64,000 nt of DNA from Psammoneis japonica (lineage: Eukaryota). A program made the position numbers and the translations under genes. The stretch spans positions 310,001-374,000 of the forward strand of contig QPGO01000019.1 in NCBI GenBank assembly GCA_008632985.1, written 5' to 3'. Within the stretch, counting starts at the first letter, position 1; every line of letters starts with the position of its first letter. The notes under the pieces were generated by a model that was not told where the DNA came from, ran no database searches, and saw only the letters and a list, made by a program, of their open reading frames with translations. This document shows, piece after piece, positions 8,201 through 48,799 of the stretch.

Positions 8201-11200
8201 GGCCAGCTGGGCCAAACCAGTCATGTCAGAAAGACAGGGTCTGCATTGACACAAGCCAAGGCATTTGCTCCCCAACCATGGTTGTCGGCATGTCCCTGGC
8301 AACCCACTGGAGTTCTCCAATGCCATCCCAAGACAACTGCACAACACTTCTGTCGGACAACCATTTTCATCATTTTGAGTGCACCCAAACAATGTGCAGT
8401 TTGTCAACGACATGGATTGAAGGCTTTGCAACAGCTCAGAGAGCATCCAATGTGCAGAAGGACATTGAACATGACCAATGGCAAGAGTCAACAAACACAA
8501 TCAGTGATGTTGAAGCCCCAACAGCAGGATTTGTCCGGAACTTGTTGTGCACAGGCAGCTCTCTCTGCAAGGCTCCAAGTGCCAGAAATCATCACACCTG
8601 CTGCAATGATGAGAACAGACTTTTTGATGGGCAATTTGACAAAGCAGAGCACAGACCAGTGCTGTCAACAGCCAATTGTAACTGGGGGCCACATGCCATG
8701 ACCTCGAGTGTGCACAACACACCACAACAGTTTGAGCTGGCAAACTCTGGCATGCCAAGACAGAAAACACATGCATCAATGTCTGTTTCTTCACTGCAAT
8801 GCCCAGTCTAGTTCACCCATCATTGTTGTTGAACAACGCAGTCACTGAAATGGGACAAAACAAACAATGCCCCAAGAGTCCTTGCACCAGTCACAACGAC
8901 AAGTGCAGTCATCATGTGAAACAGCAGATCATGACAAAAACACTCACACAGCAAACCCCCCTCACTGTTGCGCCATGCCCTGTGAGTGTCACTTGCACAC
9001 AAGAGAAGTCCAAGACATCCATGAAAATGGTCGAAGTCCCTGTGTCCTTCGCAAACTTGATCATGCTTTGTCCAGTTGCTCTCCAAAAGGTGGCATCCAA
9101 ATCCAGCTTCCAAAAAGATGTTCCAGACCCACAATTGTCTTTTCAACATCCATGAGCATCGTTCACATTGTTGACAAGATGAATGTGTCACACTGAGGGT
9201 GCGCACATTGTCCGTGCTTTTTTTCTTTTTTGCTCACAAGTGCGGATCTCAACCACCCAAAACTGGGACCCACCCTTTTTCCAAACCAAAGTGAGGCTGC
9301 ACCTGTGTGTGCCACACTGCATGAACAATGCATTGAGTGACATTCACATCATTTTGAAGAGACTGTGGCAACAAGCAATTTGTTCACACTCACCTGGGCC
9401 ATTTGTCTGGGTCTTGCACTCAACAAGCGCACATCACAGAATCGATGATTTCACAGCTGCTGCATTGGTCAAAGAGTGATTTTCACTCTGCAAGTGACAA
9501 ACTCTGCAGCACACAGAGAAAACACTTGTGTGAGCCACAGAGGCAACTTAAGCAAAAGCAGAGATCTGACAAATGGAAGGGAAAAAAAAAACAAAACTGT
9601 TCTTGACAAGTGTTTAAAATGTGGACAGAATGAGCCACACAGGTGGCTTAAAATGAGCAAGAAAAATTTGTTTGTTTGTGTGCTGAGAAACAAAATTGAC
9701 AATTGTCTGTGTTAAAGATCTGCAAATGTGATCAGCACACATGTGAAAATTTCAATCATTGACAAGTTGTGCTTTTGTTGAGCACAGAAACATGTTGCAG
9801 ACTGCAGGGGGCACCCAATTGCTGTGCCATTGCATTCAACCCATTGCTGCTCCACAGTGATGCAATCAAATGACTGCAATCTGATTGCTGCAGAAAACTT
9901 TGCAATTGGTCAATGCTGTGAAAACATCACGCACCATGATCAAAGCACAATGATGAAGGAACTGTCATCAATCTTTTTCTTAAAAACCCACAGCCTGCTG
10001 GCATTCTCCTCAAACACTCACCTTGCAACAACAGCGACTGCCGCCAAGTGCACTGTGGTGTGGTGTGCTGCAAGCCCTGGCAGAGCAATGTCAGCAGCAT
10101 GCATCACCCACAGTGTGTGGTGTCTCTGCACTGCAAACTCAAACTTGTTTTGCTCACACAGCCACAGGGCATGCTCTTGACGGAGCAACCCTTTGAGAGT
10201 GACAAGCTGGTTTGGTTTTCAATTGCTTGAAATGATGACACAGAGACTGGGTGCCTGACGAAGTTGCAGCAGCAGGGGGTGTTCAAGAGACAGACCTTGG
10301 CTCCTGTGCTCCTTGACTGTGCAGCAGCTCTGCCCATCCCTGCCCCTTTCATCTGTCATGTTTCATCCCTTGCCTTTGTAGAATCTGGTGCAACACAGCC
10401 ACTCAACAGTGTTTGCACCATGGCATGCACAGCAACAGGGCAGGCTGTGTTGCATGGGCTCATTCTTGTGTGCACACTCACACCCCTGCTCATGTGCAGA
10501 GATGCACAGAACAATTTTGTTCATTTTCAAATGGACAAATGCCCCCCACCATTGCAAACTTTTGTTCACTCTGGGGGCCTGCAAGAAAGCTGCATGTCCA
10601 TGCTTTGCACTTTCCCACTCTCAACACAGGGAAAAACTTGTAACCTTTGTTTGGCCATGAGGCACACTTGTCATTTCATCCATTTGCACAACTGTTGCAT
10701 CATTTTGTGTTCAGACAAGCCAGCTTCAAGTTTGTCTTAACTCATCCAGAGGGTGTGTTTGTGCCACACTTGTCTTGACACAACACTGGCTGGCCTGTGG
10801 ATCAGCACATGTGTGCGTGCAACTGCTGTCAGTGTCATTTTAATTTCACCTTTGTTGTGAAGCTCAAGGGGTTGCACTCTGCACACTGTCTTGTTCAAAC
10901 ATGACCCATTTTGTGATGAGTTGGCAAGATCACTGTGCTCCTCTCTTTTCCACCTGATCCAGAGCACAGGGGAGTTCAGTCAGCCTGGAGAGCACAGCAG
11001 CTCTTGTTTTGTGTTGTGTGTGGAGCAGCTTTGACAGTCCTTTTTTTGCACTTGCCAAAGCAACTGCCACAGAAATTGTGAGGGGCCAGTGCCAGTTCTT
11101 TTGACATCACTCATTTCATCATCCAGCACCAAGTCACAGGCAAAGTGCACCTGCTCACTTGAGAGCCACTGGATGCCTCTTCTTGCATCCAAATGTAAAA

Positions 11201-11600
11201 GTCTTCCAATGTTTTTGTTCATTTTGTTGCAATGAACATTGTTCAAATGTTGTCACAGCAATGCAGGCACATGATGGTCATCAGTGGTGTCTGCATCCAA
11301 GGATGACAATGCACTGACCCTCTTCATTTTCACAGTCAATTGAACTGGCAGTCCTCCAGAAGACAATTGAGCTGGCACAAGCACTCCTTTGCACATTCCC
11401 ACTGAGAGAATCAAGATGTAAAACTTGAATGGAAATGGCTCACCAAGCTGCCAATGCATTGCCAAAAAGTGACACCAAGTGATGCTCTTGAACAAAATTG
11501 CAGCCGTTGACACCTTTTCTTGGATTGTCAAAAGACTCTGATCTTCCAACACTCTCTTTCAATGGAAAAAGGCGAGAATCCAAGGCAGAAACACTTGATG
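5300..11600. mobile_element. Unclassified, heavily degenerate repeat block lacking both TpA and CpG
   Basis: Near-absence of TA and CG; spurious Cys/His/Met/Trp-rich ORFs in all six frames; contains a tandem array. Confidence 0.65.
7130..8350. repeat. Degenerate tandem array of about 6-7 units of ~125-190 bp
   Basis: Recurring CCCAAGACAACTG(A/G)GCAC, GCTGGGCCAAA...CAGTCATGTCAGA and TTGACACAAGAC...TTCCCAACC motifs. Confidence 0.8.
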
Positions 11601-21595: not shown

Positions 21596-21701
21596 CCACC
21601 ATGCGTGTTTTCCCTAACACACTAACTACTTGAAGCCCCCAAGAATGCCCAAGAGAATTCCATTTTCTTTACCCGTATATTACTTTTTTCGCTAATTGAC
21701 A

Positions 21702-23028
21702 TCAAATAAGCTCCATTCTAAGCTTCTTTGCCGGACTAGCGTTGAAAACTGCCTCATAATCGTCTTGCACACATTGCTTACACCACGTGCCCGAGAAGAA
21801 TGCTCCAGCGCATGCACAATTGCTGCAAATGTCGGAACCACAAAGTCCACAGACCAACAATAGATCGCACGAGTTGCAATAGGTTTCACAGCAGAACTCG
21901 CAAGCCATGGAATTGCCACTAGTGCATGAGGAGCAAAAGGTTGTCCCACAAACGGCACAATAGGCGATACAATCCGTGCAAAGCTCGCAGAAATCTAGCT
22001 CACATATATTGCACGTTGCAGCTGGACACTTGCTACAAATGGCTCCTTCACAAGAACCGCACAACGCAAGGAGCTCGCATGACTTGCAATAAGTATCGTA
22101 GCAAACATCGCATGTCTCGTCATCCCGGCACGTGGCGCAAGCGCTAATCCCACAAGCAGCGCACTTTTTGACATCCATGCAATTCATGCAGAAATCGTCT
22201 TGACAAACATCACAATGGCCAATCCACATGCACCACGGTAGTTTGCGATTCATTCGATCTTGACAAAAGGTTCCGTTGCACATGGAGCAATTCTTGGGGA
22301 CTTTGCATTCAAGGCAATAGTGTTCATGGCAATTCGTGCACCGAAACAGAGGGGGGCAGCAGCTTTTGTTATTCTCTCGGCATGTGACTTTGCCACATCC
22401 CGCACATTCAAAGCAGGAAAGCGTGGATCCTTATGTTCCGTCACGACCTGAATCTTGCACGTGTCACATACCTGTTGGTTCTGCTTAAGCCTCTGGATCT
22501 TGCAAGCGTCAAGTTCATGCATAAACTCGATTTGCATTTCTTCATCGTCTTCATCAAGACAACTGCCCGGAATTTGAACACGATTCAACTTGTAGGGTAG
22601 CATGGACCGTAAAGTATCAATCAGCATGCTCTTGTTGTCTACAGAATCACCATTATAATACCACGTTCGAAAATGTACGTGCTCCAACACGCGTGATCCC
22701 CGAAGCACCGATAGACAACCCAGTCCTGAAAGGTTGTGTAAATAGATTGACATTTTTTCGTCACTTCTATTGCATTGACTCGTAGAAAAAGACTTTGCAA
22801 TACATCATCCGTAAGTTTGGCTTTCAAATGCTTGGGTACTAGTTTTGGAAAATCCATCTCTTCCCACAACCACGAGCACTCGCGATAAATGTGGGTCCGT
22901 GCATAGCGATTGCACGATGCCAATAAAGTCAATGCTGCGATATCCAAAAAACCAAGCACAAATCTGGATAACTCGGACGGTAAGCCGTCAAAGAGCTTGT
23001 TACGACAGGGTGGTTCCGCATCGTCCAT
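21702..23028 (-). CDS. F-box-like protein with C-terminal CxxC-rich region, copy A (apparent frameshifts)
   Basis: FDGLPSELSRFVLGFLDIAAL..LASCNR....W; many CxxC pairs; ends SPAKKLRMELI (NLS-like). Split over ORFs 22639-23028, 22250-22753 and 21702-22283. Confidence 0.7.
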
Positions 23029-23430
23029 GGTCGCAGAGCGCTAGCCCTATCTCCTCTGAATTTTGGCTGAACAAGATCCTGTGAGTACGGTACCGTAGTA
23101 TTGGGTACGGAAGGATATTTGTTAGTATCTTCTCTGAATTGAAAAGGATATTTGTTTATTGAATAAGCATTTTGGTTTTTTCTGGAGGTCTAAGTAGTAG
23201 TTTCGCTGTTTGCACTCGTGACTCGTGATTCAATTCAATCTTAAAATTTACACCGCTTCTTAGAGCGGCCACCTAAGGCTTACGCCCGATTTTCCCTTTC
23301 AATCCACAACCATAGATGGGGACAGAACGTCAATTTACAAAACAAGTGCACTTCTCGCATGCAGTTGTGGGGCGATGGTTGCTGCTCTTCATCGTCAGGA
23401 GAGGGCCTGCAGTCTTTTGGTGGCCGCTGG

Positions 23431-23706
23431 TGACAGGATTTGAACAGGATTTAGGTGCGCGCGAAATGTCGCGCGCTGTTTAGTTTACCGCGCACAGTTT
23501 TGTGTGCTTTAGTTCCGCGCGCTCGCGCGCGATGTAGTTTGCTTTCGAGCCACAAGGCTCACAAGAATAACAACAGCAGCCCGATCATACCGACTTACAC
23601 GTCTTTCGGCTCCTGTGACGGTCTCTGAGTGGAGACTCATCTGCTGTTTAGACAGCAGTAAGGAGTCATTGTTTGAATTCTTGCCACTTGCCTTCAATTT
23701 CTGTCA
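23431..23706 (+). repeat. 5' LTR
   Basis: Aligns without gaps to 30292-30567 with 17 differences, all transitions. Confidence 0.97.
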
Positions 23707-24646
23707 GATTGACAGTCTTGCTCATTGTCAACCCATTGAGCAACCGCCATCGTCGTCGTTGATTTACCAACGACGCTGTTTCAATTCTACGTGGACCTCC
23801 GTGTGTGTTCTACATACATCGGCAAGTCTACGCGCATTCAATGCCAGGGCATCGGCAGGAAGTTAACGTCACCGTCAAGTCTCCTTGCCGCTGGACATCT
23901 GGATTGATTGTGCCACCTTTGGTCGCTGAAGACATGCATTCAACGGTCACATCCAAGTCTGTCCTTGATCCTCATCCCTTGACACACCTGTTCATCGGTC
24001 AACGGTCAAGAACCCCACATGTTCAAGGATCTTCGTCGCTGAAGACATGTGTGTGTGTGCATGTCTTCACGGCCAAGAACCTGCACCCACTCTTCGGACT
24101 GCGGTTTTGCTGCCACTCTACAAGCACACCGAGTCCATTGCACCTGATCTACCCCGGACTGCTGGTGCTCTGCAGTTCTGCCAGGTCCACGAGGACGACT
24201 GTGAGAGCAAGTGGCCGTGACCACAGCCTGCGTTGGGGCGAGGGTGCTTTCCCGCGTTTGTTCGTTCGTCCACAGCGCCTGACGCCTGCGTCAACTGGCC
24301 AGCCTGATCGGGAAATCCAACCGATGTAAAACAAGAACGGTTCGGGGGTCTTGTCCACCTCCAGTCAGCTCACCTGCAGGGGTTTGCAACCCGCTGCTCT
24401 GCTCGCAAGCAACCCAAAGCGCCACCAGCTGCGGGTTTTCTACGTGCCGGCACAACTCTGCGGACCGGATGGGAAGTTTAGCACTTGACAACGAACGGGA
24501 TGGCAAAGCCCGGCGACTTCTGATTTCAAGATAGATCAAGATTTCAAGTCAAGTCCATTTCAAGCCAAGTCCATTCTCACCCAAGTTTCAAGTCCACCTT
24601 CGCTTCCCAACAAGAATTGATTGTCCTGACACCACTTTTGTCTGCC

Positions 24647-25795
24647 ATGGTTCTCACTCGTCAGCAACAAACCGATGGTTTCGAGCACGTTGTTGGAACC
24701 GTGCTTGCCCAAGGTGCTGGGAGCCCTCTTCGTTTGGCTTTGGCCCAAGACGGCACGGACTCGCATCAACAACTGTTCACGTTCACACCGTCCCAAATCG
24801 ACTCGCTTGAGTGCGACAACGGCACCAATGTCATCCCTTTGCCCCGTGGTTGTGAGAACATGTTAGCAGCTCTGGTTGGTCTGCACATTGTCAAAGCACA
24901 CAAAGGTCTTGACGTTGCCAATGACTTCTCGTTGTTCGCGCATGACGAGTTCCTTGCCTGCCGCCTCAGCCCCGACTGCATGTCTTCTGTGTCCATCGGC
25001 AGCTCACCCCTCGCACCTCCGCATGTCACCAACCCGACCAAGGCACGCGACCCGGTGCGGGACTTCAAACGAGGCATCAAGCGTGATCCCACCGCTTTCA
25101 CGGCTCTCAAATCCAACAAGCAGTGGCACACTTGGCACACCTCACTTGTGGCACAAGCCCGTGCCCAAGACGTCGAGTGCACTCTAGACTCGTCGTACAA
25201 ACCGACCAGCCCCGAAGACAAACTGCTCTTTGCTGAACAGCAAAAGTGCGTGTTCGCCGTCTTCGAACGCATCCTTCTCACCGACAAGGGCAAGGCTCTC
25301 ATCCGCGAAAATGTGGGGTCTTCTGACGCACAGACCGTCTGCTGAGCCTTGTCTGAGTGCGCGCTCGCCTCCACCCGTGCATCTGTCGAGTCCTCCACCC
25401 TGCCAACGTGCCTTGCCACCGCACGTCTTGGTGATGGTGCTTGGAAAGGTCCGACCCACGGGTTCATCCTTCATTGGCAAGATCAGTTGCGCAAGTGCGA
25501 GGCACTCATCCCGGCCAGTGACCACTTCTCTGAAGGACAGAAGCGCGTCATGCTCGAGAATGCCGTGCACCCTGTCGAGGAACTCCGTGCTGTCAAGAAC
25601 CAAGCTGATCAGCATCGTACGCAGAGTGGCAAGAGCCTCACATGCGATCAATGCTGTGGCTTGCTCCTCTCCGCGGCAGCCCAATGCGACAGCACGTTTC
25701 AACCCAAAGACGACACCTCGAGCTCCCCGCCGCGCCATGTGCACACACGACGTCTGCTCCGAGGAACCGTCCGACGATGTGTTCTACGACATTGA
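24647..25795 (+). pseudogene. copia gag, interrupted by TGA at 25343-25345 (probably CGA->TGA)
   Basis: MVLTRQQQ...DFKRGIKRDP.AF..LK...W..W...AQARAQDV...FAEQQKCVFAVF...FILHWQDQLRKCE. Confidence 0.85.
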
Positions 25796-28700
25796 CAGTG
25801 ACATTGACGTCCTTCAGGCCAGTGCTGCCTGCACCCGTGGTCCCAGCCTCACCGGTGACCAATGGAAACGTCTCCCTCCCGACCACCAACGGATTTGGGA
25901 TTCGTTGCCCCATTCCTCCAAGGCGATCATCCTTGAGCATTCTCGTCCGCCTCCCCGCAACCCGCGAGACAGCAACTGCCATGAGTCCGTTACGGCCAAC
26001 CTTCATGACCAACGCCTTGGGAGTGACGGTGATGTCAACTTGTCCAACACGACTCCTGCTGACTCTGGTGACTCCGCTCCAAATGTGGGTGCCACTTCGG
26101 ACAATCCCATCCTGGCGCACCTCACCAAGCACAAGCCACTGCCACCCGGTGATCTGCACTGTCTGTTGTCTCCTGACCAAGCCCCCAATGCCAGTCGACC
26201 GGGGCCATCCGCCGCTCCCTCTACCCCGCCAGCTTCTGCCGATGACATGGAACTTAACGGCCGCACTTGCTGCCACGTCAATGACCACAATGTCATTTGC
26301 TCTGCCTCTGCTCATCGCTCCACATGCACTGGTGCTCTGGTCGATCGTGGGACCAACGGTGGCATTGCTGGCGACGACGTTTGCGTCATTGCACGCACCT
26401 CTCGCCAAGTCGACGTTCAGGGCATTGACGACCATCAATTGGTGGACATCCCCATTGTCACCGCTGGTGCCGTCATTGAGACCCAGCGTGGTCCCGTCAT
26501 CGCCATCCTCCATCAGCACGCATGCACGGGAAAGGGCAAGACCATCCATTCCTGCGGCCAGCTCGAATGGCACAAACAGGATGTCAACGATCGCTCTGTC
26601 AAGGTGCCCAACGGCTTGCAACGTGTTGCCACTCCTGATGGCTGTGTCATCCCCATTGACATCAAGGCTGGCCTGCCTTGTGTTGCCATGCGACCTTGCA
26701 CTGACGCCGAGCGGGACACCCTGCCCCATGTCATCCTCACTGGTGATGACACATGGGATCCTTCCGTCCTCGATCACTCTGTCACTGACGACGACCAGTG
26801 GTGCGACGCGATCTCTGACCTGCAGGACGATCCCACTGCCAACCTGTTTGACGAATGCGGCAACTGCCGTCATCGTGTTGTTGTCAACGAGACCATCTTG
26901 TCCGCTTCCTTGTCTGCCGATCACGCGTCCGCCCCAGATGATCACCTCATTCCGAATGACGGCGTGTTCTGCAAGTGTCATCTACACGCGATTGACCCCA
27001 AGGACGATGACGTCCCGCCCCCGGAGCGCACTGTGCAGCCCAAGGATCCACCCTTCGAGTCTCTTTGGCCTCACTTTGGCTTCCCACCTGCTGATGCGGT
27101 CCGTCACACTTTTGACTGCACCACGCAGTGCGCCCGCATGCCCGCCGGTGCACACCTTAGGAAGGCCTGCAAATCACCCAACCCCGCCCTTAATGTGCAC
27201 CGCCGCAACGAGCCTGTCGCCACTGACACCGTTTGTGCCGACACCCCGGCCGTTGACTCTGGTTGCACCAGTGCCCAACTGTTTGTTGGCACCGAATCTA
27301 CTGTCACTGACATCTGCGGCACCAAGACGGACAAAGAGTTTGTCAACACACTCGAGGATCAGATCCGTGAGCGTGGTGCCCCACCCAAACTCATTGGCGA
27401 CCGTGCTCAAGTTGAGATCAGCAACAAAGTGCTCGGGATCCTACGGGCCCTCTTCATCTCCAGCTGGCAAAGTGAGCCTCACCAGCAACACCAAAACTTT
27501 GCCGAGCGTCGACACCAGACCGTGAAGCGCATGGCGAATGCTGTCATGGATCGTTTTGGTTCGCCCGCCCACACATGGCTGCTGGCGCTCATGTGTGTGT
27601 GCTTCACACTCAACCACACAGCGTCCCCACGTCTCCACTGGCGCACGCCCCTCGAGACTCTCACTGGCTCCACCCCGGACACCAGCCCATTGCTTCGCTT
27701 TCACTGGTGGGAACCCGTGCACTTCCACCTCGATGACTCCGATTGGCCGTCCGAATCCCGTGAGTTGCGTGGACGCTTCGTTGGCATTGCTGAGCACGTC
27801 GGCCACCAGATGACCTTCAAGATTCTCTCTGACGAGACTCAGAAGATCCTCTGCCGGTCCAACGTCCGCTCCGCTGCCACCGATCCTGCCGTTCGAAACC
27901 TGCATCTTGATCCTCCTGATGGGGAGCCACCTGAACCCATCATCAAATCTCACCATGACGACAACCCCGTCGATTCTTGCCATGGCAACAACCCCGTCGA
28001 TTCTCCTGATGGGGAGATCAGGACACCCAAGATGCCAGTTTTCGATCCGCAAGACATCATTGGACGTACCTTCCTCATGCAGCCACAAGAGGACAGACAA
28101 CGCCACAGAGCTCGCATCGTCAAGGCCATTGAAGACCACGAATGGAAAGTGAACGGCAATCCCGAGCTCACTAAATTCGTCTGCTCTGTCAACAACGACG
28201 AATGCGAGGAAGTCCTTGCCTGCAATGACATCATGAATCACATTGAGCAAGAAGACGAAGACACTGCTGTTTGGAAATTTCGACGCATCGTGTCACACGA
28301 AGGACCTCTGAAGCCTCACGACCCAACCTGGAAAGGCTCAAGCTACAACATCATGCTTGAATGGGAAAGTGGGGAGATCACGTCTGAGCCTCTTGCCATC
28401 ATCGCCAAGGACGACCCCGTCACCTGCGCCATCTGTGCACGAGAGAACGGACTCCTCGACACGGATGGCTGGAAGCGGTTCCGCACCATCGCGAGGCGCC
28501 AAAAGAAGCCATTTCGCATGGCCAACCAAGCCAAGCTTTGCTCCTTCCGCACTGCACCTCGCTGCAAGTACGGATGCGAAGTTCCCCGGAACTACAAACA
28601 TGCCATGTCACTAGACGAACGCAACGGCAACCGCAAATGGGGAGACGCAACTAATCTCGAGATGGACCAACTCGACGAATACGAAGTCTTCCATGACTGC

Positions 28701-30344
28701 GGGCCCTTCGAGTCTTCCACTCCTCCTGCGGGACACAAGAAGATCCGAGTGCACCCAGTGTGCGACGTGAAACACGACGGTCGCCACAAGGCACGACTCG
28801 CAGCCGACGGGCACCTCACGGACGTACCCATCGATGGTGTCTGCTCTGGAGCAGTCTCCCTCCGTGGCCTTCGGCTGATGATTTTCCTGGCCGAACTCAA
28901 CGAGTTGGAGACATGGGCCACCGACATTGGCAATGCCCACCTTGAAGCCACCACCAAGGAGAAGCTTTGCATTGTGGCCGGACCCGAATTTGGCAAACTC
29001 GAAGGACACATCCTTGTCATCCACAAGGCCCTGCATGGACTGCGCAGCTCCGGTCTCCGCTGGCATGAGCGCTTCGCCGACTGCCCACGAGCTGAAGGCT
29101 TCTTCCCCTGCCGCGCCGAACCCGACATTTGGATGCGCAGGAACGGCGACCACTGTGAATGCGTTGCCGTTTGTGTGGATGACCTCGCCATTGCCATGAA
29201 GGACCCTCAATCTTTCGTTGACACTCTCACGGAAAAGCACAAGTTCAAGCTCAAGGGTGTGGGACCCATTGAGTTCCATCTGGGTTGCGACTTTTCCCGG
29301 GATCCTGACGGAACCTTGTGCCTGTCTCCGCGCAAGTACATCGAGCGCATGGTCGACAGCTGCACCCGACTGTTTGGGGAGAAACCTGCCACCAACGCCC
29401 TGTCACCTCTGGAGAAGGGTGACCACCCCGAACTGGACACTTCTGAACTGCTGGGACCCGATGGCATTCACAAGTTCCAGTCTCTTGTTGGTTCACTCCA
29501 ATGGGCAGTGTCCCTTGGTCGAATTGACACCACCACGGCCGTCATGTCACTCTCTAGCTTCCGAGCTGCGCCCCGTCAAGGCCACCTGGATCGTGCCAAA
29601 CGCGTCTGTGGGTGCCTCTCCAAGATGCGACACGGTGCTCTCCGCGTTCGCACGGAAGAGCCCGACCATTCGGATCTCCCTGCTCCGGCCTGTGAGTGGA
29701 TGCATTCCGTGTGCGGCGAAGCAGAAGAGATGATCCCGAAGGACGCTCCACCGCCCCTTGGCAAGTTCGTCACTGCCACCCACCACGTCGATGCAAACTT
29801 GCACCATTGCGTGCTCACCGGACGCTCTGTCATGGGAATGCTCCACTTCCTCAACAAATTCCCTTCTGATTGGTTCTCTAAGAAGCAAGCCACCGTGGAG
29901 ACTGCGACCTGCGGGTCTGAATTTGTTGCCGCAAGGACTTGTGTCGAGCAGATTGTTGACCTGCGCATCACCCTGCGCCACCTTGGCGTCCCGATCCGTA
30001 ATGTCAGTTGCATGTTCGGTGACAACAAGTCGGTTGTAGACAGTGCCACCATCCCGCACTCCAAGTTACACAAGCGACACACCGCACTGTCGTTCCACCG
30101 TGTGCGTGAGGCAATTGCCTCTGGTTGCCTTGAGTTCCACTTCATCGAAGGCTCCCGCAACCCTGCTGACATCCTCAGCAAGCATTGGGGTCACTCCCAA
30201 ATCTGGGACCTTCTCCGCCCCCTCATGTTCTGGAACTTCATTTCATCCGAAGTCGAATCTGTTTCTGTGGCTCCTCAAGCAAACTGGGGAGTGACAGGAT
30301 TTGAACAGGATTCAGGTGCGCGCGAAATGTCGCGCGCTGTTTAG
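25740..30344 (+). pseudogene. copia pol (protease, integrase, reverse transcriptase, RNase H) with mutated catalytic and conserved motifs
   Basis: LVDRGTNGG (PR); ATDT..SEPHQQHQNFAERR (IN); HKARL, TDIGNAHL, ALHGLRSSG, CVDDL (RT); HVDANL, TCGSEFVAAR, GDNKSVV, NPADILSK (RH). Only 6 Tyr in the 1704-aa ORF. Confidence 0.95.
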
Positions 30345-30567
30345 TTTGCCGCGCACAGTTTTGTGTGCTTTAGTTCCGTGCGCTCGCGCACGATGCAGTT
30401 TGCTTTCGAGCCACAAGGCTCACAAGAATGACAACAGCAGCCCGATTGTGCCGACTTGCATGTCTTTCGGCTCCTGTGACGGTCTCTGAGCGGAGACTCA
30501 TCTGCCATTTAGACAGCAGCAAGGAGCCATTGTTTGAATTCTTGCCATTTGCCTTCAATTTCTGTCA
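30292..30567 (+). repeat. 3' LTR
   Basis: Preceded by AAACTGGGGAG and followed by the TSD GCTGG. Confidence 0.97.
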
Positions 30568-30572
30568 GCTGG

Positions 30573-31975
30573 CGGCCGAGTTGCAGCTTTCTTTGCAACC
30601 TCTGCCACTTCCAGCCAGCATCATTTGAAGTCAATGTCTTCAGCTTGAACTTCTTCCATTGTCCTGTCAAACCACCTGGCATGTTGGGGAAGGGAGTGCT
30701 GCTGGAATTTGGCCTCGTCTCGGGTGCTGGTTTCTCGGCCGCCCTCTCCCACATGCGGTGCTGCCACATGTCGTCCCATGCTGTGCTCCGCAACTGTTCA
30801 ATGAGTCTGGATGCCCACTGCAGTCCCATGTTCCTTTGTTCAAGAAATTTGCAGCATGCCTGTTGGGTTGTGCCACCCACTTTGCAGTCAAGAATCCTTT
30901 GACAAGAGCGCCATCTTGCCCAAGGTTTCTCTTGTGAGTCGAGTGCAGCCTGCACATGAGGATGGTCAGACACTGGGATCTTGTTGTGTTGCCCCTCACA
31001 CCAGGATTGCATCAGCCTGAGGATGCTGGCTTGCAAGTCTGGGCAAGCCAGTTGTTCTGTTGGCCATTTCTTGAGATTCTCCATCTTCTTGGTCCAAAGC
31101 CCTGCATCTCAAAACATGATCTGTCCCATCGTCTCCATCCTCTCTGCATTGTGAGCAGGTGGAACTTTCCAGTTTTTTTGACAGCAAAGATTTCTGTTCA
31201 TTGACAATGAACCAGTCTTCCATCTTGGTTGCCACAGTTGATGGAAAGTGGGGCATCTGCAAATTGCAACCCACAGCTTCCCTGTCAATTTTGGCATGAG
31301 TGGGCTCCGGATCAAGTCTCTTCTGTGCCAGCACAACTCTGCCGGCAGACCATGCACATGTTCTGGAACCATGCTTGGCTGCCACAATGTCAGTGTCTTG
31401 TCCTGGAGTTTGATTGGCCAGATGGGTTGCAGCACTTTGCGCGGCATTGCGTCAGATGATCTCGCAATGCTCCCCAGCAAAAGAAGCCTTGGCCAGCAAG
31501 CCCATCTCCACATTGAGCTGTTCTGCATGAGTCAGTTCATGCAGTGGCTTGTGTTTGTTCTTGTGTCTGTCAACTTCTTCTGCCCCAATGACAATTGGCA
31601 GCTCTTGCACCATCAATCGCATTGGATGTGTTTGACCACAATTTGTCAGCTTGGGATCATCACAGGATTTGAAGAAGCAAGTCCACAAACTGACATCACA
31701 GCAGTCACAGGCCAACACCACCTTTCCATGTGCAATGTTGCAGTGTTTGCATGGCCTCCTGATGAAGGCAATTGGGCCAAAGATGACACTCAACTCCTTT
31801 CTGTAAAGTGTCAAATCTGTGCTGTCACCTGGAGTTTGGTTGACTCCTCGACAGCGGTGAGTGTGTGCTTTGCTTGGCAGCAATGTCATGCCTGCTGTTG
31901 CCAATCCTTCTTTGTAAGAGCCATCCGCAACACAGATGGCAGTGCCTTCTTTGACTCCTTTGACTGGAGCCTCTA
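30573..31975 (-). mobile_element. Degenerate 3' part (RNase H and Cys/Trp-rich tail) of a diatom non-LTR (Ambal-like) retrotransposon, into which the copia element inserted
   Basis: Fragments PGDSTDLTLYRKELSVIFG, VVLACD, EVDRHKN...LTHAEQLNVEMGLLAK, CSQCREDGDDGTDHVLRC and WASRLIEQLRSTAWDDMWQHR. Confidence 0.65.
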
Positions 31976-32335
31976 AATCCAGCTGGAACCCATGGGGAAT
32001 GAATGACCACTCTGCATTGCTGAGAGGTCGTTCTAGGTTCTAGTGCACTCGGTGGAAGAACAGGCGAAGTGTAATCCGAGTTGGAAGTGCATCTGGAGGT
32101 AACTGTGAGACGCAACCGTTTGGTTGATGGCAAGCGCTGTGACTCCTTCGTCTTTGGGGTAGTCTTGTGTGCATGACTCAACCCGAGTGTTGATCCGCTT
32201 AAATGCTCTATTTTCTTGGGGTGAATACATCCACGGTGTGCTAGAATGTCATTACCATATCTACTTTCAGCACCCAAGATTCCCCAAGAGAACTCTTTTA
32301 CGCTGCCCATATATTACTTCTTCCGCTCAATGGCC

Positions 32336-33692
32336 TCAACTAAGCTCCATCCTGAGCTTTTTCGCCGGACTGCCATTGAGAACTGCCTCGTAATTGTCTT
32401 GTACACATTGCTTACACCACGAGCCCGAGAAGAATGCTCCAGCGCATGCACAGTTGCTGCAAATGTCTGCCCCACAAAATCCGCAGACCAAGAATGGATC
32501 GCACGAGTTGCAGTACGTTTCACCGCAGCACTCGCAAGCCATGTTGGAGTTGTTGCGACCACTACATGAGGAGCAAAAGGTTGCTTTACAAGCGGCACAA
32601 TCCGCGATGCAATTCGTGCAAAGCTCGCAGAAATCTAGATCACATGTATTGCACGTTGCCGCTGGGCAATCGCTGCACATGGCTCCTCCACAGACCCACA
32701 CAACGCAAGGATTTGGCATGTCTTGCAATAACTACGGCAGCAGGTATTGCACGTTTCGTCATCTCCGCAAGTGGCGCATGCACGAATTCCACAAGCAGCG
32801 CACCTTTTGACATGCATGCAATGCATGCAGAAATCGTCGTGACAAACATCACAATGAACTACCCATGAACACGATGGTGGTTTCGTGGGATTTTTCATTG
32901 TGGGATCATGTTGACAAAAGGTTTCGTTGCACATGGAGCAATTCTTGGGGACTTTGCAACCAAGACAAAAGTGTGCTTGGCAAAGCGAGCACCGAAACAG
33001 AGGGGGGCAGCTTTTGTTTTGTCTCGACGGCATGACACTTTACCGCATTCCACACATTCAAAAGCGGGAAACCGTAGATGATCTTCATCCGTCACGAGCT
33101 GAACCTTGCACGTGTCACATACCTGTTGGTTCTGCCGGAGTCTCTGTATCTTGCAAGCGTCAAGATCACGCAAAAACGCACATTGCATTTCTTCATCGTC
33201 CTCATCAATACCGATTCTCGGAAATTGAACACGATTCAATTTGAAGGGTAGCATCGATCGTAAAATATCAAATAGCATCCTGCTCTTGTTGTTGTTGTCT
33301 ATAGAATCATCATTATGATGGTACCACGTTCGAAATTGTACGTGCTCCAAAACGCGTGATCCCCTTAGCACCGATAGAGCCCGTAGTCCTGAAAGTTGAT
33401 GTAAATAGATTGCCAATTTTTTCGTAACTTGGAGAGCATTGACTCGTAAGAACAGACTCTGCAATGCATCATCCGTAAGTTGTTTTTGCGACTTGACGGA
33501 AAGTTTGAAAATGTCAATTTCTTCCCACAACCACGAGCACTCGCGATAAATGTGGGTCCGTGCATAGCGATTGCACGATGCCAATAACATCAATGCTGCA
33601 ATATCTAAAAATCCAAGCACAAATCTGGATAACTCGGACGGTAAGCCGTCAATGAGCTTTCGGGGTGGTGGTGATTCCGCATCGTCGTCCAT
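32336..33692 (-). CDS. F-box-like protein with CxxC-rich C-terminus, copy B (paralogue of 21702-23028; apparent frameshifts)
   Basis: LIDGLPSELSRFVLGFLDIAALMLLASCNRYARTHIYRECSWLWEE is almost identical to copy A; ends SPAKKLRMELS. Confidence 0.75.
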
Positions 33693-33971
33693 GGTCACAG
33701 AGCTCTCCTTCTTGAAAAAAATGCCGTTGGCTGCGAGATCCGGTGAGTTTCCAACCAATAATTGCTAATTGAATATATAATAATTATAGTATCATCTCTG
33801 AATTATATTAGAAAATTGATTCATTGAATTAGCAATTTTGATTTCATGTTCCAAGTCGATGTCGGTGCCAATTGCAATGGCGTCTCGTTTTGTGATTTTC
33901 TCACCAGTTCCTGTTTACATCCTTGCGATTTCTGCTGGAAGGATTACTAGTGTACTCTTATTTGAAGCACC

Positions 33972-35693: not shown

Positions 35694-36549
35694 GTGTGCT
35701 TGTCTATATTCCACAATAGTATGAAAATAATGATATAGAATCAAGAGAGAGGCAAAACAACTTGAATGCCTGTATTGCTCTATAATGCTTTCAACAGAGA
35801 CAATAGAGGTACGTAGCCAAGGATTTATAAGTCTATCAGGATGTACCGGTACAAGCTGCGTAGAACGCGTGTTGCCAACCGCGGTCACACGTCCCTAAGT
35901 AATCTTGACGGTGCGAACTCCGCCGTTAAAGTATATTAAATATATTCGTGTTATACATTTTTTATCGCCGTCTGTTATCCCCCCTCCATCACGTTTCGCA
36001 CCCGTCTGTCTTCCCCCCTCCATCACGTTTCGTCTTCAAGGTATGTATTATAAAAGTATATTTATATTTATAAGAGCAAGGTTCTTTCCGTCAGAAGCCC
36101 AACGTAGACCTACGTAATACTCAGTACAAAAAATAACGGTGTTCGTACCACGCATGGCAACAGGCTCGCACGTAGATTTGTACCGGAGCTTGTACATCCT
36201 GAGAGACTTATAAATCCTTGTACTTGGCGGCGTTGAGAGTGGAACGATCGTTTGGTCTTGGCGCCAGCAAACCAGGCCTGCGGGGAGCATTGACCACTTG
36301 TCTTTCTTTGTGGGTGTGGGTGTGTGCCGTTGCATGCTGTATTGTCTGTACGTACGTAGGGGCGGCTGAGTGGCGTGGCCACCGCACCGGTGACGCGGAT
36401 GACCGTTATATTTGATGTCTCATGCCATTTTTGGGGCTGTAGCGAGGTGCACGGACACTCTTTTTTTTCCAATTTATCGCCATAATAGCGCATCGCACAA
36501 ACTCACTTATTGTTCGATATGTTTTCCCAAATATGACTGGGCGATCCAG

Positions 36550-37600
36550 AAAACTTCGAAGACTTCGAAAGATTCCATATTCCATGACATTTCTGCAAAT
36601 TATTCTACGTGCAGAGCTCGTAGGTTGTTGGTACTTTATAAACAAGGGGCAATAGATAAAAGTTCGAACAAATATGTTGTGTGTTCGAAGCTTTCGAATA
36701 TTGTTCGAAGTGTTCGAAGTTTTGTCGCAAAAATATTGCCCTCCAAAGATTTTGATTTGAGTCACTTATTCTTCGAACTTTTCATATTGCCCTTTTGGTC
36801 ACTTCGAACTTATTCGAACAAAGTTCGAACTTATTCGAACAAGTTCGAAGTGTTCGAACAAGTTGAATTTTAATTATTTATTTAGTCATTTACACATCAT
36901 TACGAATTGACAACCACCGATTTTTGGCACGCGACACCACCACGATGACACGTTCCGTCGAACGAGTTCGGGCCCACCCGGAACAGTTACCAAGCCATTT
37001 GGGTACAGCTATGTCAATGAGGTACTTGCGGATCATATATGTCTCATTGGATTGGCAATTCTTCGTGGTTGACAAATGAACGACGGCAAAGGATTCACGT
37101 GTTGTTTTGTCGTGCTTTGGCGCAGAAAACCTGCGCAGGCCTGCTCTGAGCCACAAGCGCGCGCAACAAGCTTGTAGCACATCATCTCATAGCTGCCTGC
37201 ACTTGTCGCTTCGATTGTATGCACCGTATCTCATCATCTCATTGACACCGGCAGATGCTCGAGACTCGAGCAGAAGAGAGCACAAAACAACAACGTGAGA
37301 TGTCATGCCGGTGCCGCATCGCGCGTGTTGCACCACCAGCAGCACGCACATCATTCGGCTGCAGATGTCATCATGACATTGTCATTTGTCTCCCTGCCTT
37401 GCTTTTATTTATGAATTATAAACTTCGAACTTCGAACAACTTCGAACACTTCGAACTTTCTTTGGGGCAGCACAAAGGGCAACAGAGAAAGAAATTTCAC
37501 AATGTTTGAAGCTTTTGTCCATCCTGCACGAGGTCCACGTAGAGACACATTGACAGGAATTAGGAATCTCTCAAATGTTTTTCGAAACTTCGAAGTTTCC
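36550..37600. repeat. Two clusters of TTCGAA palindrome repeats in opposite orientation
   Basis: GTTCGAAGTGTTCGAAGTTT at ~36703, TTCGAACTTATTCGAACAA twice at ~36803-36860, and AACTTCGAACTTCGAACAACTTCGAACACTTCGAAC at ~37421-37456. Confidence 0.8.
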
Positions 37601-37965
37601 TGGATCGCCCTGTTTCGTGTAGAGTTCACGACCAATTGTCTTTGTTCACAACTGAGTGCATTTTTCAACATGCCACGCCGGCAATCCCAATTTTACAGCA
37701 CTTTCGAGCTCTCCTGAAAAACCGTGCCACGCACCCGTCGCAGGGAATTTGTCGATTTTTTAGGATGTCCCCACGACCTCTCATGTCCTCAATGATCATT
37801 CTGCGAATCCGAAGAATTCATCTGTGCTGAACAACCCACCCCGTTCCAAAATCCGAGGGACACACTTTCCGACCCCCCGACCCCCCGACTGCCCGACTGC
37901 CCGACTGCCCAACTGCCGGACCGACATGAAAAAGTCTGCAATCACCAACCACTGAGTGGTCAATG

Positions 37966-40900
37966 AAAACCCGGGTGTGGCACCCGGGTTTTCACATTGG
38001 CGACAGCCGTTAGACCAAAAAAACAAATGTGCATTGACAACGGACTAAATCCCTTTTAGCCCTCTCTTCATCACTGTTGATCCATGGCGCGCGCAGCAGC
38101 AACCGCCACAAACCGATTGCCAGCTGCTGTGCCAAAGATTGTGGGCGCCACACCCCAGTTTCTGGGGCGATTGTCCTGGGTTTTCGTGCGCGATCTGTGC
38201 GCCGTAACCTGCCGGCATGTTTGTACGAAAAAATGAGCGGCAGTGCAGCATCAAGCTCGGCATGAAACGAACGTTGCTGCTGCAACAACAAAAGACGAAT
38301 TGAAGAAGAGTGCTGTGGCGGCGCTTTTCAACCAAGGTGCTGTTGATGCAGCGGCGGTGGCTGGACCAAGCTTGCCATCTTGTGTGAGACGAGTTGGCCG
38401 TGATGAACCATCTGGTGAGCTCAATCTAGAAGAAGCGCTGGAGGAGGCCAATGAAGAAGGTGATGGAGGTGACTCCGATGAGGAGCATGAAATTGCCGAC
38501 ACGCACGATGACACAAGGGCTGACGCCTTTGCTGATCGGCAAAGAGCCGTGGTCAATGGCGAGTCTGATGAACAGACAGTTGAAGTGAATGACACCACTT
38601 CGTTGCTGCTTCACCGCGGGGATGTCGAGCACCCCCACAATCTTCACATCCCAGTGCCGCCAACTGACTGGGTTCCTTCAGCTCAAAAGGTGCAACAAGG
38701 CGAGCCTGAGTTCACGGATGCAGACAATCCAGGCGGCTGGAGTCAGTTCACCTTCCGCCCTGAATTTGATGCCAAGGGCGCCAAACAATGCTTGCGCCAT
38801 TTGCTCCCAACAGGTGCCGCTCCTGTTCCCGAAGATGAAGAAGGGAGACGTCTGGTCAACAATTGGGAATTTTTTTGTGATGGGTGGACACGTGAAAGAT
38901 CATCCCATTTTGTTCCTGATGATGCTGGAGTGACGCCATCCCTGTCAAACAGGAGTGGAGCATCAAAGGACAATCTGTTCCCAGAATGCAGGAAGGGCCA
39001 CTTGGATCTGGCAATGCTGAAAGCGCTTGGCATGACGAAGGAAGGAATCAGCAATCATGATGCTCTCTTTTTTTATCAGTTGATTTTACCAGTTTGCGAC
39101 ATTTCAAAGTCGGGTGTCGACAATGATCCACGAAAGCCGTTTTACACAGAGGTTGAAAGGTTCTCTAACTTGCACGCTTTGAGAGACCCAAATCTGTTCA
39201 GCTCGCATGGGCACAGTGCCAACATGGTTGCTGCAACAGAGTTGGTGCATTTTGATGGTGGTGTGGTGGTTCGTGATGGGGTGAGAGGTGGCAGTGATGG
39301 CGCCATTCATCGACGGTGGCAGAGCGGATCAGACTGTGATTCAACAATGTCAACGGCGATGCACCACACCCGCTGGCTCCAAATGAAGCATCTGATCAAG
39401 CTTTGCGACAACAGTGCGGCGCCACAACGTGGAGAGGATGGGTGTGACCCAGCACGCAAGCATTCCATGCTGTGTGATGTCATCACACACAATGTGAATG
39501 CGATCACTGGAGTTGAAGACCTCGACATTTGTGGTGACGAAACAACGTGGGGGCGTGCAGGTTACGGAGAGGCTGGCAGCGGATTGACTGGTAGAATCGC
39601 TGGGAAGCCGGGCATCACAAAGGGGGGGCAAACAGTCATTGTCAGTGACGTGCACCGCATTCGACCGCAAGCGTGTCTACATCGTCACAAGCTTCATCTG
39701 AAGCCTCAAGGTTGGGGAGCAATGGGCCCGCTTGAAGTGCGAATGATGATGGAGCAAACAGCACCCATGGTGCAAACTGTCGGGAGCAATGATGATGATG
39801 GAGGGCCGAAGAAGATGTTCATGGGCAAGCCTCATGGCACTTGGGACAACTGCTTCTCAGGCGACCAGATTGTGGACTGGCTTGGCCAAAATGGATTTTC
39901 TGCAACTGTGACATGTCGTTGAGATCGCCTCCCATCCGGAATCTCTGCAAAGCATTTTCACAAGAAGGCGACGCGGGTGGATGACAGGTCACGCAGTGAA
40001 GACGGTCCCCAGATCGGATGCGAACAGGGAGTGCCAACGGCTTCATTGTTCATTTCAATCTACCTCCTCCTGCAACATTGCAACGGTGAACGCTCTCAAC
40101 AAATGCTCAAAATTTGCAACACATCGTGAACAAGGCCAGGGAAGAAGCAAGCGCCATTGGGGCATTGAAATGAACGAAGCAAGAATGACGCACCTCAGCA
40201 CCTGCTCACGAATTGATTCTGTTGATCATTTGATGAAGAATGCACACATGTTTTGTCGATCGTGGAAGTGCTGGCACTCAGCAATGCTGCATGGTAAGAA
40301 GCTTGCCGCAACAGTCGTGTGTGACATCTGTCTTGAATGTTGTGAAGGGAATGTCGATCCTGAGTGGCGCGATGACAATCCCACATCATTCTGGTCGTTT
40401 CGAGACAGGTGTTTGGAGCAAATGTTGGAGTGCAAGCCGGAGCGTCGCATGTGTCCTGGAGACTCAGCAATGAGAGTGTCAACCCAACAAAACCAGCAAC
40501 GCCATGACCGTTCGGTCGACAGCGCACCTCGCTTGACTGCCACAACGGGTGAGGTCGTCACAACAACTCAATGCCGGGAGGCAAAACGTGGTGGCCATTC
40601 ATCCCGCTTGTGTGGTGACCTGACACAATTGCGGAGGCACATTGATGGAGTGGAGACGGGTTTGAAGCACCCGTGTCTTTGTGTTTGGTGTGGCAAAGAT
40701 GCACACACGCGATGCAACGTCTGTGGGAAATTCGTGCATTGTTCAGCGTCCCACCATGGGAAACATGGTGATGAGAATTGTTTTTTTCTCTGCCATGATG
40801 AAGGATTGTTTGGTCTTGCACGAGATGACACCAAACTTTTTGTTTGCAAGCGCAAGTCAGATTGGAAAGAGCCGTCGCAAGCAAGAAAGCGGGTGAACGC

Positions 40901-41285
40901 GACTCACATTCAAGACATTCGTCAAGGATGCAGCAACCCTGAATGGCAAGTGTCTGGTTAATTGGCATCACACATAAATCACATTTCTGTCAAACTGCTG
41001 CTGGCAAAGCAGAAAAATGAGCATGACTGATGCATTGACAAAGCAACAATGCCGGGTGCAGGAACCACAATTTTGATGTGGGCGTTGCACCCGCATGAAC
41101 AAACCGGGTGTGGCACCCTCTTTTCAAATGAGGGCACCACACCCACATTAAAAACCCGGGTGTGACACCTGCTTTTCAAGTCGGTGCACCACACCCGCAT
41201 AAAAAACCCGGGTGTGACACCCGCTTTTCAAGTGGGTGCACCACACCCACGTGAAAAAAACCGGGTGCAGCGCCCTGGGTTTTGG
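37966..41285 (+). mobile_element. piggyBac-like DDE DNA transposon with imperfect terminal inverted repeats; transposase pseudogene ~38084-40961
   Basis: RWLQMKHLIKLCDN, GCDPARKH, DICGDETTWG, TWDNCFSG, IDSVDH and C-terminal CVWCGK..CNVCGK.VHC...CF..CHD; in-frame TGA at ~38234 and 39920. Left AAAACCCGGGTGTGGCACCCGGGTTTTCAC resembles the reverse complement of 41250-41284; ~50-bp subterminal repeats at 41095-41280. Confidence 0.75.
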
Positions 41286-42059
41286 CACCAAGACTAAACG
41301 ATGAGAGCAGGTCACAAAATGCGTCTGCTTCATGTCTTTTGTGTGTGGGATTTGCATCGTCATTGGTTGTTGGAGAAACGCGGAGGAGGCTTGTAGAATT
41401 TGTGCACATTTCTGCACAACACCCCAAAATAAATTGCATGTCCATCCGGCCGTTGGACATTCGTGCCGGCATGTGGGTCAGCCGATGCGTTGGCCGGGCA
41501 AAGCACAGACAGAATGTGTGCATCATGGGGCGGGGCGGGGGGTCCAAACAAACACAAACATCATGTTGTGCCAGCACCTTTTTAAGTTTTTGTAATGGAA
41601 ACAAAAGGAGGAATCACACACTGAAAACAAAAAGAGGAGAAAGGACAGGAGGGAGGGAGATGCGCACCTGCCAGGAGAGGAGCGAGAGAGCACACTTGGG
41701 AGCCCGGCATGGCGGAGTTCTTTTGCTCGTGCCATTTACAAAAAGAAGGGGGGGGGGGGGGGGGGGGCAGAGGATGTGCACAGAGAGTTGTGGAGAGGCA
41801 AACAATGAAAATTTCAAACAGGTTTTCCAAACAATGAGAAGCAAAAACCCTCAAAAACTCTCAAACAAGCGATGCAGCGCACCACTGTTGTTGCCAGCAC
41901 ACACACACACAAGACAGCAGCAGAGAAAACACTGGGGTGGAAAAAGAAGGGGGGGGTTGGGGGGGGGGGGACAAACAGTGGTGCAGGAGGGTGCTGCACA
42001 GAGACTTGCGCACACCATCCATGACACTGTGTTGGTCTTGTTGTCACATGCGCAAGACT

Positions 42060-42900
42060 CTGTTCCAGTTTTTGCAAGAAGAAATCTTCCTCATCTCTCT
42101 GCCAAAGTCTCCCCGCTGGAGGACAACAAGGAGGTTCCAGACCTGGGAGCAGCCCCAGTGCTTGCTGAGAATGTCAGCCAGGTTGTGGGGACCTTTGATG
42201 AAATGAAACTGGAGGCAATTGCCTTGCACACATGGTGGAATGAGAGGGCGGTGTGTTGCTTGTGCAACTTGGAGTGTGAGGGATTGTGGCACTGTCCACA
42301 ACCAACTTGTTGTCCCCAAACACACAACATTTTTCATGAGTGGGGGTGCCAAGGTGATGCAGAGTGATTTTCAGATCAATGATCTGCTCAACGCATGTCC
42401 TTGTGGCAAAACAAACTCAGATCCATGCATTGCAGTCTCAACTGTTGCTTGTTTCTTGGAGAACCAATTGGCTGGAAACTTGTTGAGGAAATGAAGGATG
42501 CCAGTGACAGAGCATCTGACAAGCATGCAATCATGGAACAAGTTTGCATCAACGCAGTGAGTTGTGGTGACAAACTTGCCAAGTGGCTTGGGCACATCTT
42601 GTGGGAGCAGCTCTTCTACCTCCCTGCACATGGATTGGGCCCAGTCACACCACACGGGCTTGGGAAGGTCCAAATGGTCGGGTCACTTGGTGCTCACTCG
42701 GAGGGCACCATGTCGCATCTTGGACAGGAATCTGCAGACATGTTTTGCATGGTCTGGATGGCCTTGACGGGGTGCTGCATGGAAGCCAGACAGGGACATG
42801 ATGGCCGCAGTGATGTCAACATGGCCAAGGGACACAGCCCACTGCAGGGAGCCAATCAAGGATTGGAGCTGGTGGATGCCATCTGGTCCAAGTGATTCGG
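42060..42900 (-). mobile_element. Older copia RT/RNase H fragment related to the 23431-30567 element
   Basis: PKPLGKFVTTTHCVDANLFHD...RCSVTGILHFLNKFPANWFSKKQATVETAMHGSEFV, HSKLHKQHTALSFHHV and NLADILSKHWGCSQVW. Confidence 0.85.
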
Positions 42901-48457: not shown

Positions 48458-48799
48458 ATACCAGGTAGTTGTTTCGAAAGGCAGTTCTTATGTGGTCTGT
48501 TGAGACTCCCATAGAGAGTAAGAGTGTCACAGCTGCTCGAGTGGGGCTATTTCAAAAAACAGAATAGTCGTAATTTTTTTCTAATGCCTTTTGCTTGGAT
48601 TGCGGAACGATCTTGTCAAATCTCATTTTGTCCTTGCCGCAGTTACTCCTGACGCAGCATCGCTCGGGAAAGATGCAAGACAACTCACAAAACAGCACCG
48701 ACACAAGCACTGACAAGGGCTCAGTAAGCACTCTAGCGAGACTGCTTTCTGTCACCACAAGCTTGTTCATCCCACTGCTGCTGCCACGTCTTTTACCAC

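Follow-up and report, generated by a model that had tools for sequence, protein, structure and literature searches.

How does a retrotransposon with the outline of a complete element come to lose nearly all of its tyrosines? The question is raised by a Ty1/copia long terminal repeat (LTR) retrotransposon at positions 23431-30567 of a 64-kb stretch of the genome of the diatom Psammoneis japonica (contig QPGO01000019.1, 310,001-374,000, forward strand), which we analysed as a whole and refer to as the window. A sequence-only reading of this element had attributed the deficit to a genome defence, targeted to repeats or heterochromatin, that converts the dinucleotide TpA to TpG or CpA. From comparisons with protein and DNA relatives, with the remainder of the window and with public read data, we conclude that TpA-directed hypermutation is very probably real. 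Dinucleotide-specific, DNA-level hypermutation of integrated mobile DNA is probably the best explanation of the locus as a whole. Hypermutation of this kind was first described in 2026; the window adds a new lineage and a much stronger case.

Loss of tyrosine and TpA from the copia element

The copia element is encoded on the forward strand. Its LTRs (23431-23707 and 30291-30567) align over 278 nt with 94% identity and have TG..CA ends, and the alignment places a 5-bp target-site duplication, GCTGG, on both sides (23426-23430 and 30568-30572). A gag-like polyprotein part (24647-25768), located by tblastn with residues 1-376 of the closest relative, P0002, and by translation, is followed by a 1704-residue open frame (25230-30344) for the integrase, reverse transcriptase and RNase H part. 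Pfam detects an RVT_2 domain at residues 1166-1377 of this frame (E 4.9e-20) and no separate integrase or protease match at E <= 0.01; by tblastn, the element is colinear with residues 337-1843 of P0002. By architecture it is an ordinary member of the diatom copia-like CoDi elements (PMC2806351); the text of the CoDi paper mentions neither hypermutation, dinucleotides, deamination nor TpA. The element had been called structurally intact, which holds for its LTRs, target-site duplication and long open reading frame (ORF). It is not coding-intact, because the gag-like frame contains one in-frame TGA (25343-25345) and is shifted out of frame with pol. Read data were available from one public sample that contains the window stretch, of which run X1 was used as assembled contigs; runs X2-X4 are from the same sample and carry only pieces of the copia repeat. 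In X1, one base at 25706 is missing in 58% of the copia family read depth.

The copia element matches polyproteins of about 1900 residues that are common in marine metagenomes, where it has relatives at 65-73% identity. We found 1413 protein relatives at E <= 1e-10 and used the best 120 of them, at 50-73% identity, for comparison. The 1704-residue frame contains six Tyr (0.35%), whereas these relatives average 3.86% and never fall below 2.86%, which bears out the scarcity seen in the sequence-only reading. Cys is raised to 3.87% (0.99% in the relatives) and His to 5.10% (3.58%). Where P0002 has its 72 Tyr, the window element keeps Tyr at 7 positions and carries Cys at 34, His at 12 and another residue at 19. 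The motifs NAHL, ALHGL, CVDD, TCGSEF, LRHLGVP, HHVDANL, HPV, DCP, RLA and SGA, previously named as lesions, are visible as such against the relatives; the Cys of KLCIVAGPEFG need not be one, since the relative P0001 also has Cys there. The element departs from 122 of the 731 columns that are conserved across 45 relatives (80% or more of them), and 24 of these departures are Tyr to Cys or His. A single TA loss suffices to explain 34 of the 122 differences, a CG loss 12 and other transitions 8, the rest requiring transversions only (28) or several steps (40).

At the DNA level, the observed/expected ratio (O/E) of TpA is 0.16 in the copia element and 0.11 in its ORF, compared with 0.59 in 28,034 pooled genic bases of the window and a median of 0.72 in 50 related metagenome loci. 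Genes are therefore spared, as had been claimed for the neighbours. The direction of the change is given by the alignment with L003, the DNA of the same closest relative, which is healthy. Of 250 aligned TA in L003, the window has kept 13, has CA or TG at 138 and has other dinucleotides at 99. The reverse case, with TA in the window and CA or TG in L003, occurs three times. Between two healthy relatives, the corresponding exchange of TA and CA/TG stands at 59:56. The control dinucleotides in the L003 alignment show 104 versus 66 changes for AT to GT/AC and 186 versus 137 for AA/TT. Because these other A/T dinucleotides change at ratios of only 1.4-1.6 to 1, and because AT, AA and TT stay near expectation in depleted DNA (see below), the change is TpA to TpG/CpA and no general drift in GC content. 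Both the direction and the TpA specificity proposed earlier thus stand.

Extent, timing and targets of the TpA loss

The loss is not confined to the copia element. Seven sharply bounded TpA-free blocks cover 32,074 of the 64,000 bases, with a pooled TpA O/E of 0.07, CA and TG raised to 1.70 and 1.72, and AT, AA and TT at 0.84-1.21. Block E (37500-41500) is a piggyBac-like DNA transposon on the forward strand, poor in TpA with CpG kept and with frames at 38237-39919 and 39912-40958. Its relatives measure about 900 residues and sit on contigs of about 3.4 kb; PF13843 is present in ten, and the named ones come from Nitzschia and Pseudo-nitzschia. At 22 conserved Tyr columns, the piggyBac-like element has 2 Tyr, 12 Cys and 6 His. 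Since this DNA transposon shows the same Tyr loss, no RNA intermediate is needed. Every mobile element of the window that is long enough for a judgement has lost nearly all of its TA in this way. Retrotransposon and DNA transposon are affected alike, the effect is restricted to mobile DNA, and host genes are normal; in 12 further frames of the window, Pfam finds kinase and GT2 domains only, in host genes.

The two LTRs of a retrotransposon are identical at integration, and their differences therefore record later events. The LTR pair differs at 17 places, all transitions. Seven of these have TA in the 5′ LTR and CA or TG in the 3′ LTR, with none the other way round (p 0.016); the remaining ten comprise four of CG type, four within two CA-versus-TG double sites and two further transitions. 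Divergence outside pyrimidine-purine steps (YpR) is low (2/276), and the 3′ LTR has lost 7 of 10 TA; together with the unequal load of the two LTRs, this would hint at a raised mutation rate. The 5′ LTR keeps 10 TA and 21 CG, the 3′ LTR 3 TA and 19 CG. As a control, a gene duplication (21623-23042 versus 32258-33706) differs by 116 transitions and 127 transversions. This direct 1.4-kb duplication, 82% identical and with Cys-rich open frames of normal TpA, flanks the copia element and block D. In each block, CA is about as frequent as TG (654 and 589 in the copia element). The change was made in DNA, after insertion and on both strands.

The reads agree with this timing. Contigs of X1 match the unique flanks 23231-23456 and 30541-32954 with no other letters at a depth of about 46-118, and the second of these perfectly matched flanks includes sequence free of TpA and CpG. 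Summed depth over the copia bins is 59,984-177,945, which is not a copy number; the copia family is highly repeated. Of 394 variable places in the family in X1, 340 are transitions. Among the best-supported 40 of 409 variant rows, 35 lie inside the copia element. Eighteen of these have CA or TG in the window and TA in other copies, one has the reverse, four belong to two CA-versus-TG double sites, two involve CG and ten are changes of other kinds. Many of the TA losses thus belong to the window copy alone, and TA-bearing family members persist.

CpG behaves differently from TpA. Its O/E is 0.89 in the copia element and about 0.75 in the piggyBac-like element; blocks B, D, F and G have values of 0.00-0.32, with CA/TG near 2.0. 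Ordinary decay of methylated CpG would account for the CpG loss in these four blocks and for the four CG-type LTR differences, but it cannot remove TpA, and in the copia element CpG is kept while TpA is nearly gone. The distinction from CpG deamination drawn by the sequence-only reading is thus upheld. We infer a fast TpA process followed by slow decay of CpG, presumably methylated, in the older blocks. Eight environmental copia relatives (L014, L024, L033, L043 and L046-L049) have a CpG O/E of 0.13-0.30 at normal TpA, so the two processes are separable. In the source organisms of these eight loci, methylation decay would occur without the TpA process. Conversely, 3 of the 50 metagenome loci (L034, L030 and L015) have a TpA O/E of 0.13-0.31, with 15, 14 and 15 Cys or His at Tyr sites, and the other 47 have 0.52-1.02.

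As for the choice of targets, some duplicated sequences escape. The 82% identical 1.4-kb gene duplication is spared, and so is a multi-copy element of about 400 bases resembling a miniature inverted-repeat transposable element (MITE). This MITE-like element (35818-36220) has 29-nt terminal inverted repeats that are 97% complementary, is rich in TA (O/E about 1.0), and reaches a depth of about 1100 at 35886 versus 60. Single-copy blocks are TpA-free too, although they may once have been repeats. The first 435 bases of the copia element, at its gene-side end, hold 16 of its 53 surviving TA; the remaining 6,702 bases hold 37. The left flank, by comparison, has 27 TA in 500 bases. Because the LTRs are unequally hit and the MITE-like repeat is spared, a regional or chromatin-type target is favoured over a homology trigger, each of the two observations being a single case. 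The proposal of repeat targeting is probably wrong, given the unaffected MITE-like element and gene duplicate and the 10 versus 3 TA kept by the LTRs, and a regional or chromatin-type target fits better.

Repeat-induced point mutation (RIP) of ascomycete fungi converts CpA to TpA, enriches TpA and stop codons, and is triggered by duplication. The process in the window resembles RIP as an irreversible, dinucleotide-specific transition mutation that disables mobile DNA and leaves genes intact. It differs in its direction, which is opposite, as previously claimed, and in sparing the MITE-like element and the 82% duplicate, though both are near or below the length and identity limits of RIP. Diatom DNMT4 enzymes are related to RID, their function being unknown (PMC9998398).

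The 145 surviving TA of the depleted blocks reveal a wider sequence context. ATAT is not found among them, and ATAG, ATAC and ATAA occur once, three times and six times, compared with 121, 147, 165 and 177 occurrences in genic sequence. TTAA is over-represented, with 34 of the 145 survivors versus 40 of 1167 genic TA. A T directly 3′ of the A is found in 10 of 290 surviving A-contexts and in 731 of 2334 genic ones (chi-square p 2e-34). The preference for loss is TAT > TAC, TAG > TAA. Tetranucleotide survival fits the product of two per-strand factors, in the order T < C < G < A, a pattern that would be expected if an enzyme had such a preference on each single strand. The excess of Tyr to Cys over Tyr to His (34 versus 12, p 0.0016) is explained by this 3′-neighbour preference, because in a TAY codon the A is always followed by a pyrimidine. 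By preceding base, the Tyr outcome shows a trend only (23:6 versus 11:6, Fisher p 0.31). A strand bias favouring the sense-strand A had been considered from the 34:12 ratio and was rejected, as the raw numbers of CA and TG are in balance throughout the blocks.

Precedent, proposed mechanism and rival explanations

The same mutational signature has been reported from the chlorarachniophyte Bigelowiella natans. There, giant-virus and virophage sequence integrated in the genome mutates about 1000-fold faster than the remainder, and 230 of the 231 changes that a mutation-accumulation experiment recorded in such viral DNA were A>G or T>C, all of these at TpA (Mettrop et al., bioRxiv 10.64898/2026.01.13.699255). 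The same preprint describes clusters poor in TpA and rich in CpA and TpG, an enrichment of reverse transcriptase and DDE domains among TpA-poor coding sequences, and proposes an ADAT2-like DNA adenine deaminase. The window shares with B. natans the A>G/T>C change at TpA, its confinement to foreign or mobile DNA and the normal host genes. It differs in lineage, B. natans belonging to Rhizaria, and in its targets, which are the copia element, the piggyBac-like element and further blocks rather than viral regions. A rate was measured in B. natans, whereas the window holds a footprint only. This footprint is the stronger one, with a TpA O/E of 0.00-0.16 over half the window versus a TpA rho of 0.45 in the viral regions, and CpG-type C>T changes are mixed into it. 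The main text of the preprint mentions neither diatoms, stramenopiles, CpG nor the wider TpA context, and its supplements may hold context data. A literature search, whose scope excluded subscription journals and bioRxiv supplements, found no report of TpA loss in diatom transposons, and hypermutation-type terms are absent from a 2025 diatom transposon preprint. The claim that the phenomenon is undescribed in diatoms accordingly holds as far as that search goes; since the B. natans preprint of 2026, it is no longer without precedent.

We propose the following course of events, with the deamination step taken by analogy from B. natans. The adenine of TpA in integrated mobile DNA would be deaminated to hypoxanthine and read as G at the next replication, producing TpG on one strand, seen as CpA on the other. 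Once integrated, every inserted copy would be struck independently of the others until hardly any TpA remains, with adjacent genes untouched. The enzyme would be an ADAT2/TadA-type polynucleotide adenine deaminase that needs a 5′ T, and its target would be picked by region or chromatin state rather than through sequence homology. Older blocks would have lost their CpG by a second, slower and ordinary process, the decay of methylated CpG. That an adenine deaminase is the cause is a tentative attribution, drawn from analogy, although it is the likeliest of the mechanisms considered.

Since TpA is self-complementary, sequence cannot separate A>G from T>C, and the thymine might be the target instead. 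TET/JBP-type oxidation of the T in the TpA of silenced DNA to 5-hydroxymethyluracil (5hmU) or 5-formyluracil, which would mispair with G, could produce the same T>C footprint. 5hmU prefers TpA in dinoflagellates, and 5-formyluracil mispairs with G; we know of no oxidised thymine base of this type in diatoms. The dinoflagellate 5hmU is enzymatic and has been connected with the silencing of transposons (PMC11572971). The window itself is silent on oxidised thymine, the authors of the B. natans study prefer adenine deamination (bioRxiv 10.64898/2026.01.13.699255), and we consider the thymine route unlikely. Far less credible is an artefact, already raised as a caveat by the sequence-only reading, in which modified bases of transposon DNA were miscalled and the true sequence still reads TA. 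The TpA-free blocks are often without CpG, a known methylation site, which would suit such miscalling. However, the X1 contigs (depth about 46-118) reproduce the flank 30541-32954 exactly and copies with TA at the sites concerned occur in the same run, the LTRs differ at 7 TA sites within the same local sequence, three contigs from other projects carry the same signature, and the B. natans data are from Illumina sequencing (bioRxiv 10.64898/2026.01.13.699255).

ADAR favours A>G with a 5′ U (cited in bioRxiv 10.64898/2026.01.13.699255), and edited retroelements are known in vertebrates (PMC4866542), so that ADAR-like A-to-I editing of the transcript before reverse transcription, or editing of the complementary DNA before integration, could be envisaged. 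Such editing is highly improbable here, as the piggyBac-like DNA transposon is hit equally, single-copy blocks are affected too, the LTRs differ at TA sites after having been identical at integration, and both strands of the copia element are changed (CA 654 versus TG 589). GC-biased gene conversion among copies would draw on the high repetition of the family (X1 depth 59,984-177,945 versus 46-118 in the flanks), on the GC-rich composition of the element (0.566) and on its mild general A:T>G:C excess. The same features could mark a natively TA-poor family, whether by selection or by import from a TA-poor donor. Against either stand the ratio of 138:3 at TpA versus 1.4-1.6:1 at other A/T dinucleotides, the higher TpA of 47 of the 50 related loci (O/E 0.52-1.02) and the equally TpA-free single-copy blocks. 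Selection is ruled out because conserved Tyr of catalytic motifs were destroyed, and conversion or native composition is on the whole most improbable.

Several points weigh against TpA-directed hypermutation by a deaminase as we propose it. The evidence comes from a single 64-kb window, and the deaminase step rests on analogy. Run X1, of unrecorded library type, may be the source of the window assembly; it excludes assembly error and is not an independent sample. The share of TA-type changes among family variants is known for the best-supported rows only (40 of 409). Gene conversion, with a less mutated copy as donor to the 5′ end, may also have made the LTRs unequal. The mild general A:T>G:C excess outside TpA (104:66 and 186:137) is unexplained by TpA targeting. 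Finally, blocks A, B, D, F and G are not identifiable as mobile elements, save for a copia fragment in block F.

Implications and other features of the window

Vertebrate genomes offer a further comparison, in the APOBEC and ADAR footprints that are likewise deaminase-made hypermutation fossilised in integrated retroelements (PMC4866542). Those footprints arose before integration, on one strand and in retroelements only; the changes in the window arose after integration, on both strands and in a DNA transposon as well. A second, distant lineage with a TpA-only signature would turn what was a single-species curiosity into a candidate for a widespread eukaryotic defence that mirrors RIP. The diatom footprint, far stronger than that of B. 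natans, present in both transposon classes and endowed with a trinucleotide preference, amounts to a concrete specification of the putative enzyme. A TpA-directed DNA adenine deaminase defence might even be common to stramenopiles and rhizarians, and old in the group of stramenopiles, alveolates and Rhizaria (SAR). It would run to completion on every mobile class, be targeted by chromatin region and prefer TAT over TAC and TAG, and these over TAA. We put this forward as a speculative generalisation. If it were true, phylogenetic profiling could find the enzyme thanks to the patchy distribution of the defence (3 of 50 environmental copia relatives), and the enzyme would be the first natural eukaryotic adenine editor of a double-stranded genome. 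A natural adenine deaminase of chromosomal DNA would also be of interest to base editing.

There are practical consequences for annotation. As the sequence-only reading maintained, the process cannot create new in-frame stop codons. Because TpA-free DNA contains neither TAA nor TAG, long false open frames arise in all six frames, a hazard for gene prediction in such genomes. Twelve frames of at least 150 residues lie inside the copia element, in several frames and on both strands, and 19 lie in 22000-32000. Transposons also escape domain searches once their TpA is lost: at E <= 0.05, Pfam returned nothing credible for 40 long frames taken from blocks A, B, D, E, F and G. Raw divergence would seriously misdate LTR insertions in such genomes, as TA or CG sites account for 15 of the 17 LTR differences.

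The other depleted blocks vary in their CpG content. Block A (1-2500) is TpA-free and has partly lost CpG. Blocks B (5500-11500; 24 TA and 43 CG in 6001 bases), F (41500-45200) and G (48700-56000; 18 TA and 48 CG in 7301 bases) are free of both TpA and CpG. Block D (30568-32000), with the copia element at its left edge, has 3 TA and 22 CG and is single-copy in the read set. An older copia RNase H fragment was found by tblastn on the reverse strand of block F (42128-42925). Blocks A, B, D and G are putative transposons. Block B also contains diverged tandem repeats of about 190 bases (7184-8340, 70-83% identical).

Two kinds of short repeats occur around the piggyBac-like element. A 26-nt near-palindromic motif of the AAACCCGGGTG...CACCCGGGTTTT type is found once at 37967-37992 and in three copies within 41151-41282, and probably represents the subterminal repeats of this element. 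Just upstream of the piggyBac-like block, palindrome-containing words of the TTCGAAC type and close variants are densely arrayed at 36520-36870 and 37420-37600; they may be the subterminal repeats of a different element.

Near the right end of the window, a host frame of more than 2484 residues (56548-63999) runs past the window end and joins a kinase domain (residues 260-461) to a GT2 part. The best named relatives of the GT2 part come from Seminavis robusta (47% identity). For the kinase, a protein atlas search returned generic kinase clusters only, with no informative taxonomy. The Seminavis proteins reach only about 1588 residues, so the kinase-GT2 fusion may be lineage-specific. The frame also contains a 153-base tandem repeat at 58210-58668.

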